This document shows positions 24,160-33,616 of a DNA stretch of 64,000 nt, piece after piece. The stretch is taken from assembly GCA_965262175.1 (NCBI GenBank), contig CBDHES010000002.1:1248315-1312314 (forward strand), in the 5' to 3' direction. This stretch comes from Acidimicrobiales bacterium. GTDB taxonomy: Bacteria > Actinomycetota > Acidimicrobiia > Acidimicrobiales > SZUA-35. The position numbers were made by a program, and so were the translations under genes. Under the pieces are notes generated by a model. That model saw only the letters and a program-made list of their open reading frames with translations. It did no database searches and was not told the DNA's origin. The number at the start of each line of letters is the position of its first letter. Within the stretch, counting starts at the first letter, position 1.

Positions 24160-25152
24160 ATGTCGGACATCGAGCACGGATCCCTCGACACCAACGGGAT
24201 CACCATCCACTACGCCAGCCAGGGCGACGGTCCCCTCGTGGTGCTCTGCCACGGCTTCCCCGAATCGTGGTACTCCTGGCGCCATCAGCTCCCCGCACTG
24301 GCCGAGGCCGGCTACCGGGCGGTCGCCCCGTCGATGCGGGGCTACGGCAAGACGAGCGCCCCGACCGAGATCGAGCACTACTCGCTCCCCTACCTCGTCG
24401 GCGACATGGTCGGCCTGGTGCAGGGGTTGGGCGAGTCGTCGGCGGTGATCGTCGGCCACGACTGGGGCGCGCCGGTCGCCTGGTACTCGGCCCTGATGCG
24501 CCCCACCGTGTTCCGAGCCGTCGCCGGGCTCAGCGTGCCGGTGACCCCACCGATCGGAGGCCTGCCGGAACCGATGACGGTCAACGACCTGATGCGGCTG
24601 GAGGCGGGCGACGACCGGGACTACTACCGCCTCTACTTCCAGGAGCCGGGCAAGGCCGAGGCCGAGCTGGAGGCCGACATCGAGGCGTCGGTCCGGGGGT
24701 TCCTCTACACCATCTCCGGCGACGCGGTGGCCAACGGCGACCGGGCGACGCCGTGGGACGGTCACTTCCCGGCCGGCGAGCGGGCGGTCGACCAGCTCAT
24801 CGTGCCCGACACGCTCCCGCCGTGGCTGACCGACGATGACGTGGCGGTCTACGTCGAGGAGCTCAGAGCAAGCGGCTTCCGGGGCGGGCTGAACTGGTAC
24901 CGCAACATCGACCGGCTCCCCGGGGCGCTCGCGCCGTGGGTCGGCGCCACCATCGACCAGCCGTCGCTCTACATCGGCGGCTCGGCCGACCTGATCGCCG
25001 GCAACACCCCGGAGGCGATCGCCACCATGCAGGGGACGTTGGGCGACCTGCGCCACTGCGAGGTCATCGAAGGCGCCGGACACTGGATCCAGCAGGAGCA
25101 CCCGGAAGCGGTCAACGCGGCGTTGATCGCGTTCCTGGCCGGTCTCGGGTAG
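24160..25152 (+). CDS. Alpha/beta hydrolase fold protein (epoxide hydrolase/haloalkane dehalogenase-like)
   Basis: HGFPESWYSWRHQ, nucleophile elbow GHDWGA, and a C-terminal GAGHWIQQE catalytic His region. Confidence 0.85.
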   Translation: MSDIEHGSLDTNGITIHYASQGDGPLVVLCHGFPESWYSWRHQLPALAEAGYRAVAPSMRGYGKTSAPTEIEHYSLPYLVGDMVGLVQGLGESSAVIVGHDWGAPVAWYSALMRPTVFRAVAGLSVPVTPPIGGLPEPMTVNDLMRLEAGDDRDYYRLYFQEPGKAEAELEADIEASVRGFLYTISGDAVANGDRATPWDGHFPAGERAVDQLIVPDTLPPWLTDDDVAVYVEELRASGFRGGLNWYRNIDRLPGALAPWVGATIDQPSLYIGGSADLIAGNTPEAIATMQGTLGDLRHCEVIEGAGHWIQQEHPEAVNAALIAFLAGLG

Positions 25153-26068
25153 CGCCACCGGGCTCCGGCGGACCGTCGACGACCTTGCGGATCTCGCCGG
25201 TGATCACATCGGTGATCACGTCGTTGATGATCGACCGCCGGGCCCGGGAGATCCCCCATCGCTGACCGAGGACGTGGTTGACGGTCCCCCCGATCAACAG
25301 GACCTGGGCCGACAGCCAGATCCAGGTCAGGGCCAGGAGGCTGGCGCCGACCGCCGCGGTGACGTCGTTGGCTCCCGAACTCAGCGAGATGTACCACCCG
25401 TAGCCGCCCGACAGCAGGCGCCACAGCACCGCGGCGGTGATGGCGCCGGGGAGGTCGTACCGCCAGGCGCTGCGCCGCGACGGCCCGAAGTGCAGCAGGG
25501 TCGAGGCCCACGCCACCAACACCGCCATCCCGGCCACCCATCGGGCGCCGTCCTCGAAGATCCCGTCGGGGAACCGGTCCCACACCAGCCGATCGAGGAC
25601 CACCAGACCGACCGGCACCGTCAGGCTGCCCAGGCCGAGCAGGGTGGCCACGATCCGGGTGTGATACCAGGCCCGCCCGTGCTCGATCTCATAGATGTCG
25701 TCGAGGGCCCGCATCAACCCGGCGAAGCCTCGTCCCACCGACCACACGGCGACCAGGATCGAGACGGCCAACAGGCCGGAGTTGGGCCGCTGGTCGAACA
25801 GCGCCCCCACCGTGTCCTGCACGCCGCTGGCCTCGGCGGTGAACACCCGGGCCACGAAGGCCCGCACGTCGTCCTCGATCTCGGCCTGGAAGCCGATGCT
25901 GGCCACCCGTTCCAGGGGTCGGAGGGCCGCCAGGAGCGCGAGGGTGGCGGCGGGGAGCGAGACGAGAATCCAGAACGTGACCCCGGCCGCCAGATCGCCG
26001 ACCCCGCCCCGATACCAGCGCACGGCGACGGCGACGACGACATGGCGTACCGCGGCGAGACGCTTCAC
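25112..26068 (-). CDS. YihY/BrkB (virulence factor BrkB, formerly RNase BN) family membrane protein
   Basis: Six TM helices and a YihY-like pattern (GVTFWILVSLPA, AVLWRLLSGGYGWY). A GTG start at 26068 overlaps the stop of the upstream giant gene (GTGA). The table ORF extends further, to 26200. Confidence 0.7.
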   Translation of the reverse strand: MKRLAAVRHVVVAVAVRWYRGGVGDLAAGVTFWILVSLPAATLALLAALRPLERVASIGFQAEIEDDVRAFVARVFTAEASGVQDTVGALFDQRPNSGLLAVSILVAVWSVGRGFAGLMRALDDIYEIEHGRAWYHTRIVATLLGLGSLTVPVGLVVLDRLVWDRFPDGIFEDGARWVAGMAVLVAWASTLLHFGPSRRSAWRYDLPGAITAAVLWRLLSGGYGWYISLSSGANDVTAAVGASLLALTWIWLSAQVLLIGGTVNHVLGQRWGISRARRSIINDVITDVITGEIRKVVDGPPEPGGATRDRPGTRSTPR

Positions 26069-29000
26069 CCTGTCGAGGATGGACCGTGCCGGAGGGCCAC
26101 CGCTACCTCCTCGATCGCCGCCACCACCCGGGTGGTGGGGTCGCGATCGTCGCCCCCGAGACGTTGCTGGCGCCGGAACGTGGCGACGATGTCGTCCCAC
26201 CGCTCTCGGCCGGCGCCGTCCAGCCGACCCCGGAGCTCGTCGAGCTTGAGCAGGTTGGCCTCGGCGGCGCCGGTCAGCGACTGGGACTCGGCGAGGTAGT
26301 GCTCGTCGATGATCGCCTCCACTTCCGCCTCGGTCATCGCCGGGAGCAGCTTCGACGCCATCCGGACCATGTTGCGATAGGAGCCCTGGAGGAGGAACGG
26401 GGGCTCGGTCCGGTAGCGATCGTCGGTGGCGGCCGAGGCGATGTACTGCCGGTTGACCGCCAGGACGACCGCCTGAACCCGGCGGAGGTGGGCGATGACG
26501 GCGACGACCTCCCCCAGCTCGGCCGACGAGTAGGCGTGGGTCAGCCGGCTCTCGTCGACGTCGGCCAGTCCGGCCCGGAGCAACTCGTCGAGATCGGCCC
26601 GGTCCCGACCGACCAACGGCGCGAGGATCGGGTTGGCCCCGAGGGCGTTCTCCAGATAGCTGCGGGCGAAGAGCTCGTCGTTGCCGGACACCACGTCGCC
26701 GAGGTTGTAGGTGTCGGCCCGGTTGGCCAACATGTCAGGCACCCGGAACCGCTCGCCCGACTCGGTGTAGGGGTTGCCGGCCATCACGACGGCGAACCGC
26801 TTGCCCCGGAGGTCGAAGGTGGTCGCCTCGCCGTCGATGACCCCTTCGATCCGCCGCTGGGCGTCGCACAGCGAGATGAACCGCTGGAGCAGCTCGGGGC
26901 TGGTGTGCTGGATGTCATCGAGGTACAGCATCACGTTCGATCCGAGGGCGAAGGCCAGGTTGATCCGCTCGATCTCCCGGGCTGCGGTGGCGCTCGGGGC
27001 CCGGGCCGGATCGAGCGACGTGACCTCGTGGCCCAGGCCGGGGCCCGACACCTTGACCAGGGCCATGCCCAGGCGGTCGGCCACGTAGTCGACCAGGGTC
27101 GTCTTGCCGTAGCCGGGGGGCGACAGCAACATCAACAGGCCGCTCCGGGCTCCTGACGCGTCGTCGACGGTGCCGATCTGGCGGGCCAGGTTGTCGCCGA
27201 TCAACGGGAGGTAGATCCGGTCGATCAGCTGGTTGCGGACGAAGCCCTCGGGAACCCGGGGTTGGAGGTCGTCCAGTCGATAGGTGGTGGCCAGCCGCGC
27301 GAGGACCGCCCGTCGGGTGGCGGTGAACGCCCGGTGGGCGGGGATGGACTCGTGGCGGTGGTCGTCGACCGCGGCCAGCAGCTCGTCGACCCGGACCGCC
27401 AGCCGGCCGTCCGAGATCGTCGGGTGCTGACCGGCCAAGCCGTCGACGGCGACGGCCAGGTCGACGTCGATCGACCGTCGGGCCAGTTCGGGGGTGACGA
27501 GCTCGGTGACGACGTCGTCGACCAGCTCCGGGGGACAGTCCCGGGCGACGTAGCCGGCGATCAGGGCCCGGGTCCCGTCGGGGTCGGCGTCGAGATGGGT
27601 CAGGGCGGCGGCCACCGCAGCCTGTCCGGCGACCTCGACCGCTCGGGCCGAGGCCAGCCCGGGGCGGGCGAAGACGGGGCCACCGCCGCCGGTGGCTCCG
27701 GCCGGGGCCGGGACGACCAGCTCGGCCATCAGGTACCGGGCGTCGGTGGGGGCCAGGTCGACGTCTCGGCGGAGGTCGTCGGCCAGCTCGGCGATCGCCT
27801 CCGGGCCGACGTCGAGCTCGGCTGCGGCCCGACCCCGGGCCGCCCAACGGGTCCGGGCGGCGTCATCGAGGTGGCGGGCCCAGGCCCAGATCGCTCGGCT
27901 CCGGGCCGCGGCGGTGGTCACCAGGGGCCCGGCGGCCAGCGCCGGGCCGGCCAGGGCGGTCAACAACCGGGCCGCGTCGAGATCGTGGACGCCTCGGTCA
28001 TAGCCCTCGTCGAGCCGGTGGTCGACCGCGTCGCGGACCAGTCGCAGGGCGGTCTCGCTCGGGTCGGCCCCTCGACCGTCACCCCCGGCCACGGCCTCCA
28101 GGACGTCCCGTCCCTCCGGGGCGGGCCGACGGAGCAGGTCGAGGAGGAGGTCTCCGGCCAGGAACGCCGCCCGGTACAGCGCCGGGGTCTCCGATGGCAG
28201 CGGCCGATCCCACAGCTCCCGATGCCCGACCAGGTCGGGGTCGTCGACCGCGACCCGGAGGTCGGTGCCCGACAGGACCGCTTCGAGCCGGTCGCCGTCG
28301 TTGACCACGGTCAGCTCTCGGGGCCGGCTCTCGACGCTGAACCGGTGCCGGCCGAGGCGGATCGCGTCCCCGTCGTAGAGGTCGATCCGGTCCCGGACCG
28401 CCCGGAGGGCGCCGTCCCGGACGGCCCCCAGTCGAGACTGGAGCTCGTCGGCCCGGACCGGCTCGCCCAGGTCCCGGAGCTGGTCGACCAGGCTCCGGAC
28501 CCGTCCCACCATCGGGTCGGCGGCGAAGAACCCGTTGACCTCGTCGACCCCGGGGAGGTCGGCGCCCCGATCGGCGACCCGGTCGAGGGTCCGGGCGCCG
28601 GCCGTCACCAACCGGTCGGCGGTCCGCTGGCGCTCGTCGATCAGCTGCTGGCGCTTTCCCCCGATCGTCTCCAGGAGCTGATCCCGGCGGGCGGCCAGCT
28701 CATCGAGCTGGGCGTCGGTCCGAGGCCCCGAGGATTCGAGCTGCTCCAGCTGGAGGAGCAGGCGGGCCAGGGCGTCGTCGCACGCCTCGGGGGTGTCGAC
28801 CCGGGCCACCACCGCAGCCAGGGTCTGGCCGTAGAGCCCGAGCTCGGTGGCGAAGGCGGCGCCGGTCTCGGCCTCGATCAGGGTCGCGGTTCGCCCTTCG
28901 AGGGCGGCTCGGACCCGGTTCAACTCGGCCAGCACGCCCGACACCTGCTCCAGGACCGCGGTGCGGTCCCGGGGGTCGGCCACCACGAGATCGCCGACGG

Positions 29001-31020
29001 TGGCTGCCACCAGCTCCATGGCGTCGGCGACGCCGTCGAGCTCGGCTCGTACGTCGCCCGCCGCCACCGACGAGTCGATCGCCGGCACCCGGGCCTCGAT
29101 GGCCGCCAGGTCGTCGTGGTAGTGGACGAAGGCTCCGTCGCTGGCCAGGTGCTCGGCCGCCTTGCGGGCCAGGTCATCGTTGGCATCGGTGGCCCGGGCC
29201 ACCAGCGCCGCCACCGCTTCCCCGTCGACCTCCCGCATCTCGGTGATGGTCTGCAGGTGGCCGAGCCGGTCCCGGATGGCGTCGAGGGCGGCGATGAAGT
29301 CCTCGGTCCGGGCCGGCCGGGACCGGCGGAGCTCGTCGAGGAACCGATCGAGGTCATCGGTGGCCTCGGCCACCGCGGCGGCCGCCGCCGCTCGGACCTC
29401 CTGGAGCCGCTCGAACTCGTCGATGACCGCCTCGGCGGCCATGCGGATGTCGTGGACCGGCGCCGCCAGGTCCCCGAAGGCGGTGTCGCCGATCCAGTGG
29501 TGGGTGTCGAGGACCCGGCCGGCCGAGCCGAGCAGGTCGCCGTAGACCTCGACCGAGGGCTCGAGGTCGGCCACCAGCCTGGTGAGCGACAGGGCGTCGG
29601 CGATGCCGGCCACCAGGCCCGGGTTCCCGACCCGGTCGAGGGGTCCACCCCGGCGGTGGTTGTCGGCGTACCAGTCGTCGGAGCAGAACGGTGTCGACCA
29701 GATCTGGACCGGGTGGACCCGGGTCGGTTCGGGTTCCTCCCGGAACGCGGCCATCGTCCCGTCGTCGAACAGGCAGTAGCCGTGGCACCAGATCGGGGTC
29801 GTCACGTCCTGGCGGACCAGGTTGTAGGGCAGGAGGATCGAGCGACCGTCCGACTGCTGGTGGAACACGTAGAGGACGTCCTCCCCGTTCGGGGACCGGA
29901 CGACCTCCAGCAGCTGCATGTCGGTCGGATCGAGGTCGAAGGTCCGGACCTCGCCGGTCCGGAGGTAGATCCCCTCGGGGAAGATCAGACCCTGGCCCTC
30001 GGGGAGCCGACGGAAGGCCTGACCCAGGGCGTCGAGGCGGAGCGCGGTTCGGGTCAGGAGGTTGACCACGAAGTGGCGCCGGGTCTGTTCCCGGTAGGGC
30101 AGCACCCGGATCAGGACCAGGTCGGCGCCGGCCAGGGCGTAGGAGATCTCACAGTCCTGGAGGCTCTGGTCGGCATCGAGCAGCCGTTCCGAGATCAGCA
30201 GCTCGCCGTCGTCGGTGGCGTCGGGGAGACGGAGGTCGAGGGTCCCCCCGAGGGGGTCGACGAAGACCCGACCGTCGATCGCCACGTAGCGGTTGGCGAC
30301 GTGATCGACCCGGGTCGTGGCGGCCCACTCGACGTCCTGGTGCGGGGGAAATCGGTGGTCCCGGTCGCCCCGATCGTCGGCGTAGGCCAGCTCGCCGCCC
30401 GGCCCCACCGTCCACCGCAGGACCCGGATGTCGGTGACCCCGGTCCCGGTCCGGAACACCGCCAGGAGCTTGTCGCCCCGGCGGTAGACCTGCTGGACCC
30501 GAGCGTCCTTGAAGTAGGTGTGGAGCTCGACGAAGTCCCGCCGGAACCGATCGTCATCGAGAGCCGAACCCGCCAGGCCTTCGGGGTTTGGGCTGAGGAC
30601 GATGGTGTCGGTGTCGTCGATCAGGTGGTGGACGCTGAAGACGTCCTCGGGTCGGAGCTCGCCCCGGACCCCGGCCTGGGCGTTGTAGGCCAGCACCATC
30701 TGGTCGCCGACCGCCTCGATGTCGCGGGGGACGACGTTGTTGTCGGTCCGGACCCGCTCCGTGGCCACCAGCTCGAGGTTGGCCGCCCCGTAGGTCTCGA
30801 TCCGCCGCTGGTTGAGGGCCTCGGCCCGACCGGCCAGCTCGGAGGCCGCCGCCTCGAGGCGACCCCGGAGCAGGCGGTAGGTGCTGGCCCCGACGGCGGC
30901 GGGCCCGCCGCCGTCACCGTTGGGGGACGGGTTGGACTCGCCGCCGTCGGCGGCCTCAGCGAGCCCGGCGGCCTCGCCGAGCCCGGCGGCCTCGGCGGCC
31001 GACGCTGCGGTGTCGGCCAT
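26065..31020 (-). CDS. Giant 1651-aa cytoplasmic protein with a C-terminal MoxR/AAA_5-type AAA+ ATPase domain and long predicted alpha-helical/coiled-coil regions; function unknown
   Basis: Walker A LLMLLSPPGYGKTTLV, Walker B VMLYLDDIQ, sensor-1/NP motif FAVVMAGNPYT, and an RFRVPDMLANR arginine region, all in the last ~350 aa. No TM segments. Its start overlaps the flotillin stop (TGATG) and its stop overlaps the yihY start (GTGA). Confidence 0.7.
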   Translation of the reverse strand: MADTAASAAEAAGLGEAAGLAEAADGGESNPSPNGDGGGPAAVGASTYRLLRGRLEAAASELAGRAEALNQRRIETYGAANLELVATERVRTDNNVVPRDIEAVGDQMVLAYNAQAGVRGELRPEDVFSVHHLIDDTDTIVLSPNPEGLAGSALDDDRFRRDFVELHTYFKDARVQQVYRRGDKLLAVFRTGTGVTDIRVLRWTVGPGGELAYADDRGDRDHRFPPHQDVEWAATTRVDHVANRYVAIDGRVFVDPLGGTLDLRLPDATDDGELLISERLLDADQSLQDCEISYALAGADLVLIRVLPYREQTRRHFVVNLLTRTALRLDALGQAFRRLPEGQGLIFPEGIYLRTGEVRTFDLDPTDMQLLEVVRSPNGEDVLYVFHQQSDGRSILLPYNLVRQDVTTPIWCHGYCLFDDGTMAAFREEPEPTRVHPVQIWSTPFCSDDWYADNHRRGGPLDRVGNPGLVAGIADALSLTRLVADLEPSVEVYGDLLGSAGRVLDTHHWIGDTAFGDLAAPVHDIRMAAEAVIDEFERLQEVRAAAAAAVAEATDDLDRFLDELRRSRPARTEDFIAALDAIRDRLGHLQTITEMREVDGEAVAALVARATDANDDLARKAAEHLASDGAFVHYHDDLAAIEARVPAIDSSVAAGDVRAELDGVADAMELVAATVGDLVVADPRDRTAVLEQVSGVLAELNRVRAALEGRTATLIEAETGAAFATELGLYGQTLAAVVARVDTPEACDDALARLLLQLEQLESSGPRTDAQLDELAARRDQLLETIGGKRQQLIDERQRTADRLVTAGARTLDRVADRGADLPGVDEVNGFFAADPMVGRVRSLVDQLRDLGEPVRADELQSRLGAVRDGALRAVRDRIDLYDGDAIRLGRHRFSVESRPRELTVVNDGDRLEAVLSGTDLRVAVDDPDLVGHRELWDRPLPSETPALYRAAFLAGDLLLDLLRRPAPEGRDVLEAVAGGDGRGADPSETALRLVRDAVDHRLDEGYDRGVHDLDAARLLTALAGPALAAGPLVTTAAARSRAIWAWARHLDDAARTRWAARGRAAAELDVGPEAIAELADDLRRDVDLAPTDARYLMAELVVPAPAGATGGGGPVFARPGLASARAVEVAGQAAVAAALTHLDADPDGTRALIAGYVARDCPPELVDDVVTELVTPELARRSIDVDLAVAVDGLAGQHPTISDGRLAVRVDELLAAVDDHRHESIPAHRAFTATRRAVLARLATTYRLDDLQPRVPEGFVRNQLIDRIYLPLIGDNLARQIGTVDDASGARSGLLMLLSPPGYGKTTLVDYVADRLGMALVKVSGPGLGHEVTSLDPARAPSATAAREIERINLAFALGSNVMLYLDDIQHTSPELLQRFISLCDAQRRIEGVIDGEATTFDLRGKRFAVVMAGNPYTESGERFRVPDMLANRADTYNLGDVVSGNDELFARSYLENALGANPILAPLVGRDRADLDELLRAGLADVDESRLTHAYSSAELGEVVAVIAHLRRVQAVVLAVNRQYIASAATDDRYRTEPPFLLQGSYRNMVRMASKLLPAMTEAEVEAIIDEHYLAESQSLTGAAEANLLKLDELRGRLDGAGRERWDDIVATFRRQQRLGGDDRDPTTRVVAAIEEVAVALRHGPSSTG

Positions 31021-32981
31021 CAGTCCTCGGCGGAGTGGCCGATCCGCCGAAGCAGGTCGGCCACGGTCAGATCACGGATGCCGTCCGACCCCAGGCCGGC
31101 GATCGCCTCGGCCAGGGTCGCCACGAGGTCCTTGTCGCCGTTCTGATAGGGGCCGAGGACGCCGGTCGCCACGTTCGACGACTCGACCAGCCCGTCGAGC
31201 CGCTTGCCGTTGCCGATGGCTCCGATCAGGGAGTCGACGAACATGTCGGAACCGCCGACGATGTCGATGTCGGCCGCTTCCAGACCGGCCTTGAGGGCCT
31301 CGGCCTGGGCGGTTGCGACCCCGATCGAAGCATCGACCTCGGCCAGGCGGACCTGGGTGTCGGCGTCCAGCTGGCGGATGAACTCCTCGTGCTCCCGCCC
31401 GACGCCCTCCAGCTCCTTCATCGCCTGGGCCTTCTCGGCCAAACCGCTCGCCTCGCCCCGCAGCTTGGCCTCGATGACGGCCGCCTCGGCGAGACCGGCC
31501 TCCCGCAGCTTCAGCGCCTCGGCCTCGCCGACCTGGCGGATGGCGGTGGCTCGGGCTTCCTCGACCTTGACGTCGGCCAGGCCCAGCTTCTCGTTGGCCA
31601 CCGCGGCGGCCTCCTGCACCTCGACCTCGGCCAGCCCGGGGGCCGCCGTCTCGGCCTGGATACCCTCGGCCCGCTTGATCTGGGCCTGGGCGGCGTAGTC
31701 GGAGGCCTCCAACTCGGCCTTGGCGAGGACGATCTGCTCGTTGGCCATGTGGGCGGCGGCCGATTCGGCGGCTTCGGCCGCCTTGATGTCCTTCACCAGG
31801 GCCGCCTGGGCGTCGGCCTCGGCGCTGATGATGACCGAGTCCCGCGAGCGGTTGGCGTCCTCGACCACCCGGAGGGTCTTGATCTCCTCCTCCTGGACGG
31901 CCACGGTCTTCTCGACCGCCACCCGGTCCCGGCGGATGTCGGCGATGGCCGACTTCTCCTCTTCAAGACTCTTCTCGGCCGACAGGGTTTCGACCCGGCG
32001 GCTCATCTCCTCGAGCTCCCGGGCCTTCTCGACCCGCTCGTGCTCGATGGCGATGACCCGCTCCCGGTTCTTGCCGGCGACGTCGATCTCCCGCTGGAGG
32101 TTCTCCCGCTCGATGCCGAGCTTCTGCTCGACCTCCAGCTTCGCCATCTCGGTCTTGAGCCGCTCCTCGGCCTCGACCTGGGCGGTGGTCGCCTCCTCCC
32201 GGAGCCGGACCGAGGTGACCTCACGGGCGTGGCGGGACTCGGCGTCGGCCTGCTGGCGCTCCAGCTCCAACACGGCCTCGCGGGTCTCGACGTTCTTGGC
32301 CGTGATCTGCTTCTGCTCGTCGTTCGACGCCACGTTGGTCGCCACGTGTTCGATGGCCGTCAACTCGGTGATCTTCCGGATGCCCTGGGCATCGAGGATG
32401 TTGTCCTCGTCGAGCTGCGAGAGCGGGGTCTGCTCGAGGTAGTCGATGGCCACGTCCTCCAGGGCGTAGCCGTTGAGGTCGGTGCCGATGACCGAGATGA
32501 TCCGGTCCCGGAACATGGCCCGCTCGGTGTACAGCGAGACGAACTCCATCTGCTTGCCGACCGTCTTGAGGGCCTCGGAGAACTTGGCGGCGAACAGCTC
32601 CTCCAGGGTCACCGGGTCCGACGCCCGCTCGGTGCCGATGGCCTGGGCGACCTTGATGACATCTTCCTCGGCCTTGTTGACCCGGACGAAGAAGTTGACC
32701 TTGATGTCGGCCCGGATGTTGTCCTGGCAGATCAGACCCTCCCGGCCCCGCCGGTCGATCTCGATCGTCTTGACCGAGATGTCCATGATCTCGGCCTTGT
32801 GGAGGATCGGGACGACGACCCGGCCGGTGAACGACACCAGGACCCTGCGGGTGGTGCTGATCACCATCGCCTTGCCCTGGGGGACCTTGCGGTACAGCCG
32901 GGACACGGCGAGCCCGACCGCGAGCACGACCGCCAGCAGCACCAGCACCGCGACGACCACCGTGATGATGATTGGATTCAT
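31020..32981 (-). CDS. Flotillin family (SPFH/band 7) protein, YqiK/FloT-like
   Basis: N-terminal TM helix, an SPFH domain, then a long Glu/Ala-rich coiled-coil typical of flotillins (EAEERLKTEMAKLEVEQKLGIERENLQREI). Real start ATG 32981 within table ORF 31020..33380. Confidence 0.85.
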   Translation of the reverse strand: MNPIIITVVVAVLVLLAVVLAVGLAVSRLYRKVPQGKAMVISTTRRVLVSFTGRVVVPILHKAEIMDISVKTIEIDRRGREGLICQDNIRADIKVNFFVRVNKAEEDVIKVAQAIGTERASDPVTLEELFAAKFSEALKTVGKQMEFVSLYTERAMFRDRIISVIGTDLNGYALEDVAIDYLEQTPLSQLDEDNILDAQGIRKITELTAIEHVATNVASNDEQKQITAKNVETREAVLELERQQADAESRHAREVTSVRLREEATTAQVEAEERLKTEMAKLEVEQKLGIERENLQREIDVAGKNRERVIAIEHERVEKARELEEMSRRVETLSAEKSLEEEKSAIADIRRDRVAVEKTVAVQEEEIKTLRVVEDANRSRDSVIISAEADAQAALVKDIKAAEAAESAAAHMANEQIVLAKAELEASDYAAQAQIKRAEGIQAETAAPGLAEVEVQEAAAVANEKLGLADVKVEEARATAIRQVGEAEALKLREAGLAEAAVIEAKLRGEASGLAEKAQAMKELEGVGREHEEFIRQLDADTQVRLAEVDASIGVATAQAEALKAGLEAADIDIVGGSDMFVDSLIGAIGNGKRLDGLVESSNVATGVLGPYQNGDKDLVATLAEAIAGLGSDGIRDLTVADLLRRIGHSAED

Positions 32982-32998: not shown

Positions 32999-33616
32999 CT
33001 ATCGCAGGACGTCGACGTCGGGTGACACCAGGAACACCCCGTCGTCGACGTCGACGACGAGGGCCCGATCGCCCGAGGCGAGTTGGTTGCTGTCGAGGCA
33101 GCGGATCTGGACGAGGTGCGAGCCACCATCGGCGTCGGTGACCTCCCCCTGACCGAAGCCGGCATCGACCCGGCCGGTTCGCACGGTGCAGATACGACCG
33201 ACGAGGTCGCGATGCCCGGGGGGCGAGGGGGGCGAGAAGATCGGGCCGAGCACCTGGCCGACGCGGCCGGCGATGATCACGCCGACGATCAGGGCCACGA
33301 CGAGCGTGACGACGCCGACGGCAAGGCCGACGGCCCCGTCGACGCCGATGGCCAGCGACGCGATCGTGGTGATGACCCACCCGACGAGCGAGATGACGGT
33401 GACCACCAGGCTGAGCGGCATCAGGTGCAGATCGAGGCCGGTCAACAGCGCCCCGAAGCCCCCGACGCCGTCGCCGTCGAGCTCCACGCCACCGTCGGCG
33501 TCGCCGCCCTCCATGCCCAGAGCCGAGGTGACCGCCCAGTAACAGAGCGACACGGCGAGGGCGACGGTGAACACGACCGCGGGAAAGCTGGTGATCGCTG
33601 CCAGGAACTCGGTCAC
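32999..33616 (-). CDS. NfeD-like (YqiJ/YuaF-type) membrane protein with a C-terminal OB-fold, flotillin partner
   Basis: Three to four TM helices, then GRICTVRTGRVDAGFGQGEVTDADGGSHLVQIR...GDRALVVDVDDGVFLV, an NfeD-type beta-barrel motif. Immediately upstream of the flotillin gene, as in yqiJ-yqiK and yuaF-floT. Confidence 0.65.
   Translation of the reverse strand: MTEFLAAITSFPAVVFTVALAVSLCYWAVTSALGMEGGDADGGVELDGDGVGGFGALLTGLDLHLMPLSLVVTVISLVGWVITTIASLAIGVDGAVGLAVGVVTLVVALIVGVIIAGRVGQVLGPIFSPPSPPGHRDLVGRICTVRTGRVDAGFGQGEVTDADGGSHLVQIRCLDSNQLASGDRALVVDVDDGVFLVSPDVDVLR

Follow-up and report, generated by a model that had tools for sequence, protein, structure and literature searches.

In the HflK/C-FtsH and prohibitin/m-AAA protease systems, a ring ATPase works in functional association with a membrane scaffold of the SPFH family. 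The HflK/C-FtsH pair is cited in PMC1468410 and PMC12005517, and in B. subtilis an SPFH protein is needed for the recruitment of PspA to the membrane (PMC8581546). ATPases of the MoxR group form hexameric rings, and in the group member CbbQ a flexible insert is located between strand 2 and helix 2 (PMC9976466). An operon of the type examined here was described in silico by Ravi et al. (2024, PMC11237479), who assigned it to membrane-associated assembly and dynamics; the supplement gives the order YqiJ-YuaF, Band-7+coiled-coil+flotillin and β-propeller+coiled-coil+AAA-ATPase. As far as the accessible portion of that article goes, its account is purely comparative and leaves the AAA+ clade unnamed.

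The window analyzed here, a 64,000-nt stretch of DNA from an Acidimicrobiales bacterium, contains the three matching products in the matching order on the minus strand. Since it lacks the CesT/Tir (DUF2170)-PspA pair, it fits the "abbreviated operon" of the same article. The flotillin-ATPase link was already published in 2020/2024, and the window is therefore a further example rather than a discovery. Added to that account are the MoxR/AAA_5-type fold of the ATPase, its invariant and unusual Asp-Asp Walker B motif, the variable C-terminal tails, the adjacency to the flotillin-like gene in 74 of 80 loci, and the lack of a vWA partner. We hold with slightly better than even confidence that the ATPase is the ATP-using partner of a membrane complex formed by the SPFH/flotillin-like and YqiJ (NfeD-type) products of the genes immediately upstream.

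Architecture of the 1651-residue ATPase

The third gene of the cassette (26065..31020, minus strand) gave a stop-free translation of 1651 aa with coding-like GC content at the codon positions (GC3 0.92), and the identical protein is present in public collections as a called gene. The product is soluble, with no hydrophobic segment of transmembrane strength, and contains DUF3686, DUF7902, and AAA regions (aa 61–508, 630–711, and 1296–1419) in an order common to the listed homologues. This combination (PF12458 plus PF25472 plus AAA, proteins of ~1600–2000 aa) defines the family named "DNA repair ATPase". More than 2600 relatives were found, and the C-terminal module gave 315 matches at E ≤ 1e-30 among 50%-identity cluster representatives; the protein is a member of a large and widespread family and not an odd fusion restricted to one genome. 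No experimental study of any family member was found in the literature searched, where queries for the DUF3686 family, or for MoxR ATPases with SPFH/flotillin proteins, also returned nothing relevant.

The DUF3686 domain (29497..30840, minus strand) matched PF12458 above the cut-off over profile positions 1–448 of 448 (514.9 bits, E = 1.9e-154). In the AlphaFold model, for which database proteins served as alignment input, this all-β region has about 26 strands at a pLDDT of ~85–90 and is predicted to form a β-propeller; its Foldseek matches were β-propeller proteins (WDR11, IFT-A, prolyl oligopeptidase, CyRPA, and Ski8), with E values of 2e-6 to 1e-3 and low TM-scores. A PDB sequence search with the N-terminal 1146 aa gave no match. 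A long helical stalk (aa ~466–881, 28378..29625, minus strand) includes DUF7902 (nt 28888–29133, minus strand) and resembled spectrin/plakin repeats in the fold search. By predicted secondary structure, it is followed by a small β domain (aa 886–925) and a helical domain (aa 946–1175; together 27496..28365, minus strand). The latter carries the nine-residue motif EGYDRGVHD (aa 1005–1013, nt 27982–28008, minus strand), in which E, G, Y, G, H, and the last D were invariant in an 18-sequence alignment.

The first-pass annotation had placed the AAA module at the extreme C terminus of the protein. This description applies to the actinobacterial clade, in which ≤31 aa follow the module, but not to most myxobacterial and proteobacterial homologues, which have an additional helical tail of 100–476 aa. 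The ends of some myxobacterial tails appeared PilZ-like by eye, for which Pfam gave no confirmation.

The C-terminal AAA+ module

Pfam analysis of the whole ATPase assigned aa 1296–1419 to AAA (26 bits) and AAA_5 (22.3 bits, cut-off 22), and the C-terminal fragment scored 25.1 bits against AAA_5 (PF07728, dynein-related). The classical AAA profile scored slightly higher than AAA_5 but covered positions 2–72 of 131 only; the AAA_5 profile was matched by all 73 homologues at positions 2–125 of 139. AAA_3, the profile of MoxR proper, was absent among the profile matches of the ATPase. The MoxR-like AAA_5 module read from the DNA in the first pass is real, with a match above the gathering score and all of the quoted motifs present, although the Walker A motif lies at aa 1303–1307 and not at about residue 1310. 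For the same annotation, an HMM placement in a different AAA clade with a well-characterized fusion architecture would have counted as a refutation; the HMMs keep the module in its clade, and the fusion architecture is indeed catalogued, though uncharacterized.

In PDB sequence and profile searches with the module, NVL, Rix7, p97, and RuvB ranked first. The resulting classical-AAA/RuvB placement was rejected as misleading on its own; the matches were confined to ~35–65 residues around the P-loop, and NCBIfam gave only sub-threshold RuvB matches for the ATPase, again confined to the P-loop. The nearest solved structures to the predicted module were CbbQ and NorQ. The alignment with CbbQ comprised 236 of its 267 residues, and the match thus takes in the lid.

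In the predicted model, a linker (aa 1176–1295, 27136..27495, minus strand) precedes the AAA+ core and ends in a helix before strand β1 (FVRNQLIDRIYLPLIGDNLARQ). Within this helix F, V, R, N, L, G, N, A, and Q were invariant in 73 sequences, and the stretch aligned to the matching N-terminal helix of NVL/Rix7. The α/β core itself (aa 1296–1440, 26701..27135, minus strand) was delimited by Pfam, motifs, alignment, and model. It contains Walker A (GYGKT, nt 27100–27114), Walker B (LYLDD, aa 1365–1369, nt 26914–26928), the sensor-1 residue N1416 in FAVVMAGNPYT (aa 1409–1419, within nt 26764–26796), and the Arg finger R1434 in RFRVPDMLANR (aa 1424–1434, within nt 26719–26751), all on the minus strand. 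None of K1306, D1368, D1369, N1416, and R1434 varied among 73 homologues drawn from several phyla, which excludes a chance match; judged by its sequence, the module carries the full motif set for nucleotide binding and hydrolysis. The model alone places a pre-sensor-1 β-hairpin (aa 1390–1403, nt 26809–26856, minus strand; model strands 261–266 and 269–274) between helix 3 and strand 4. The helical lid and C-terminal helices (aa 1441–1645, 26086..26700, minus strand) were assigned from model helices and contain the conserved YRTEPPF..LQGSYRN motif with the sensor-2-like Arg1549 (nt 26371–26388, minus strand). R408 and R420 of the model, corresponding to aa 1537 and 1549, were invariant in the alignment, and Arg1549 may act as sensor 2.

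Only one AAA region was detected by Pfam and in the models, in agreement with the single module noted in the first pass. The midasin/dynein-like logic proposed there fails, because those motors concatenate six AAA modules in one polypeptide, whereas the ATPase has one per chain; it also has neither the MIDAS/vWA domain nor the microtubule-binding stalk of these proteins. With one module per chain, any ring must be a homo-oligomer. By analogy to MoxR ATPases, the hexamer with outward-projecting N-terminal arms suggested in the same note is plausible.

The Walker B motif was Asp-Asp in 73 of 73 homologues, without the catalytic Glu, and the hhhhDE pattern of MoxR ATPases was not found. The ATPase could therefore be slow, or a nucleotide-dependent switch and not a motor. 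Under a rival reading, the module would be a nucleotide-dependent assembly switch or a static scaffold, and the protein mainly a sub-membrane skeleton element of propeller and spectrin-like rod on flotillin. The spectrin/plakin likeness of the stalk would suit such a role, as would a conserved 18-residue loop between strand 2 and helix 2 (aa 1326–1343, nt 27007–27045, minus strand). For this loop, tentatively placed at the pore-loop/helix-2-insert position, no hairpin is predicted, and its sequence has no aromatic residue. We nevertheless regard this rival reading as unlikely, given the strict conservation of the Walker A Lys, the sensor-1 Asn, and the Arg finger, which is usual for ATP hydrolyzers, and given that conservation within the ATPase is highest in the C-terminal module (identity 0.7–0.8 versus 0.3–0.5 in the stalk).

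The YqiJ-flotillin-ATPase gene trio

The first gene of the cassette (32999..33616, minus strand) encodes a 205-aa YqiJ/YuaF (NfeD2-type) membrane protein with a C-terminal OB-like domain, whose match to Pfam YqiJ_OB was weak and below the cut-off (E = 0.0042). Public data contain the identical product as a called gene, and 67 of 80 related loci have a relative of it at the corresponding place. After a gap of 17 nt follows the second gene (31020..32981, minus strand), identified through its orthologues as encoding a 653-aa SPFH/flotillin-like protein with an N-terminal transmembrane helix, an SPFH-like region, and a long Ala/Glu-rich coiled coil. The window protein itself gave no match in Pfam or in sequence and profile searches against the PDB. 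Band_7 was matched by orthologues of 43–50% identity, best among those scanned by the one from Pseudoalteromonas (E = 5e-11), and by 3 of the 20 members aligned, and the pQBR103 orthologue bears the RefSeq name "SPFH domain-containing protein"; the SPFH identity of the window protein is drawn from these relatives and not from a match of its own.

The flotillin-like gene and the ATPase gene overlap by a single base, common to the stop of the former and the ATG of the latter (TGATG), and the two are translationally coupled in one operon with the YqiJ-like gene. In 74 of 80 loci the flotillin-like gene immediately precedes that of the ATPase, with ≤200 nt between its stop and the first aligned ATPase residue in 63 of the 74; it is missing from two loci (L016 and L062) whose upstream sequence extends over 3 kb or more. 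The trio recurs in related loci of at least five phyla, in Acidimicrobiia, Actinomycetes, Myxococcota, Gamma-, Beta-, and Alphaproteobacteria, and Planctomycetota, and no other conserved neighbor family was found beside the 80 homologues. Across loci, the identities of the flotillin-like protein and the ATPase are correlated (r = 0.75), which is uninformative because shared phylogeny accounts for it.

On the other side, the ATPase stop is overlapped by the GTG start (GTGA) of a gene for a YihY/BrkB-family membrane protein (25112..26068, minus strand; PF03631, E = 2.7e-33), which is probably co-transcribed with the ATPase gene at this locus. It was rejected as a fourth operon member, since it was found next to none of the 80 homologues. 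A rhomboid gene lies downstream of the trio in eight loci. PspA/IM30 and DUF2170 genes precede it in 17 of the 80, all proteobacterial, which ties the trio to membrane stress; in the window this pair is absent, and the next gene upstream is a divergent dienelactone hydrolase gene.

Conflict systems often contain giant NTPases with propeller repeats. The occasional linkage to phage-shock-type PspA genes, the patchy spread over distant phyla, and copies on large plasmids such as pQBR103 could be read as signs of a conflict or defense module, which would detect membrane damage caused by phages or toxins and react to it, for instance through abortive infection. We consider this improbable: neither the ATPase nor the flotillin-like protein had a significant PADLOC match, no effector domain (nuclease, protease, or pore-former) was found in the ATPase or conserved alongside it, and the window context is one of ordinary housekeeping genes (such as LigA, transporters, and glycosyltransferases) and not a defense island.

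That the nearest solved structures belong to vWA-dependent MoxR chaperones (PMC9976466) raised the question of a similar dependence here. MoxR proteins (CbbQ, NorQ, and RavA) of ~270–500 aa act with a separate vWA protein and have a DE Walker B, whereas the ATPase has 1651 aa, a DD Walker B, no AAA_3 match, and SPFH and NfeD-type membrane proteins as conserved partners. As already noted in the first pass, no vWA gene is nearby: none was found in the operon, the flanking genes, or 19 further window ORFs, nor as a conserved neighbor of the 80 homologues. With a 1300-residue N-terminal extension and a cross-phylum adjacency to flotillin, both foreign to MoxR-vWA systems, a chaperone that depends on a vWA partner is very improbable.

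Least tenable is a role in DNA repair, with the ATPase working on chromosomes like the long-coiled-coil SMC/Rad50/SbcC proteins, a reading for which the NCBI and UniRef name of many homologues, the Pfam text for DUF3686 ("ATPase involved in DNA repair"), and a weak PADLOC match to LmuB in the helical stalk (E = 1e-4) can be quoted, but against which stand a contiguous AAA+ module in place of a split ABC-type head, the lack of any SMC_N, AAA_23, SbcC, Rad50, or DNA-binding domain match in Pfam and NCBIfam, sub-threshold RuvB at the P-loop as the only repair family listed, and conserved neighbors that are all membrane proteins, with a nuclease or repair gene linked in 0 of 80 loci. No paper supporting the name was found in the literature searched; it presumably derives from coiled-coil similarity to COG0419, and it misdirects researchers.

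A proposed role in flotillin remodeling

The most likely function of the ATPase is ATP-driven remodeling of the flotillin membrane complex and not DNA repair. In its layout, an N-terminal helix and propeller, a spectrin-like stalk, and small β and helical domains precede the single MoxR-class AAA+ module. The modules would assemble into a ring, as in MoxR ATPases, and set several propeller-and-stalk arms beneath the membrane. The propeller may serve as a built-in adaptor that takes the role of the separate vWA protein in classical MoxR systems. ATP turnover would then drive assembly, disassembly, or reshaping of the flotillin cage, or act on proteins inside it, and the outcome may be membrane maintenance and a response to envelope stress. 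The analysis establishes the domain layout, the MoxR-like fold, the conserved motifs, and the tight linkage of the three genes. Linkage proves neither that the products touch nor which of them acts on the others; contact with flotillin, ring formation, the direction of remodeling, and the physiological role are put forward conditionally.

The likeness to HflK/C-FtsH would consist in the pairing of an SPFH scaffold with a ring ATPase, where for the window protein we infer both the ring and the coupling. FtsH is a membrane-anchored protease of the classical AAA clade, whereas the ATPase is a soluble MoxR-type protein that lacks a protease domain; in contrast to that of FtsH, its gene lies in the operon of its presumed SPFH partner.

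A more far-reaching reading, which we offer tentatively and consider less likely than the partnership itself, is that of a new class of MoxR-type motor in which the vWA adaptor is exchanged for a propeller and rod, and which is a dedicated assembly/disassembly machine of flotillin cages. If true, this would make the ATPase the first AAA+ partner of an SPFH scaffold that is not a protease, and it would supply the energy input missing from current flotillin models. The role of bacterial flotillins and the control of their assembly are unsettled, and a widely conserved ATPase from the same operon is an obvious experimental handle on both.

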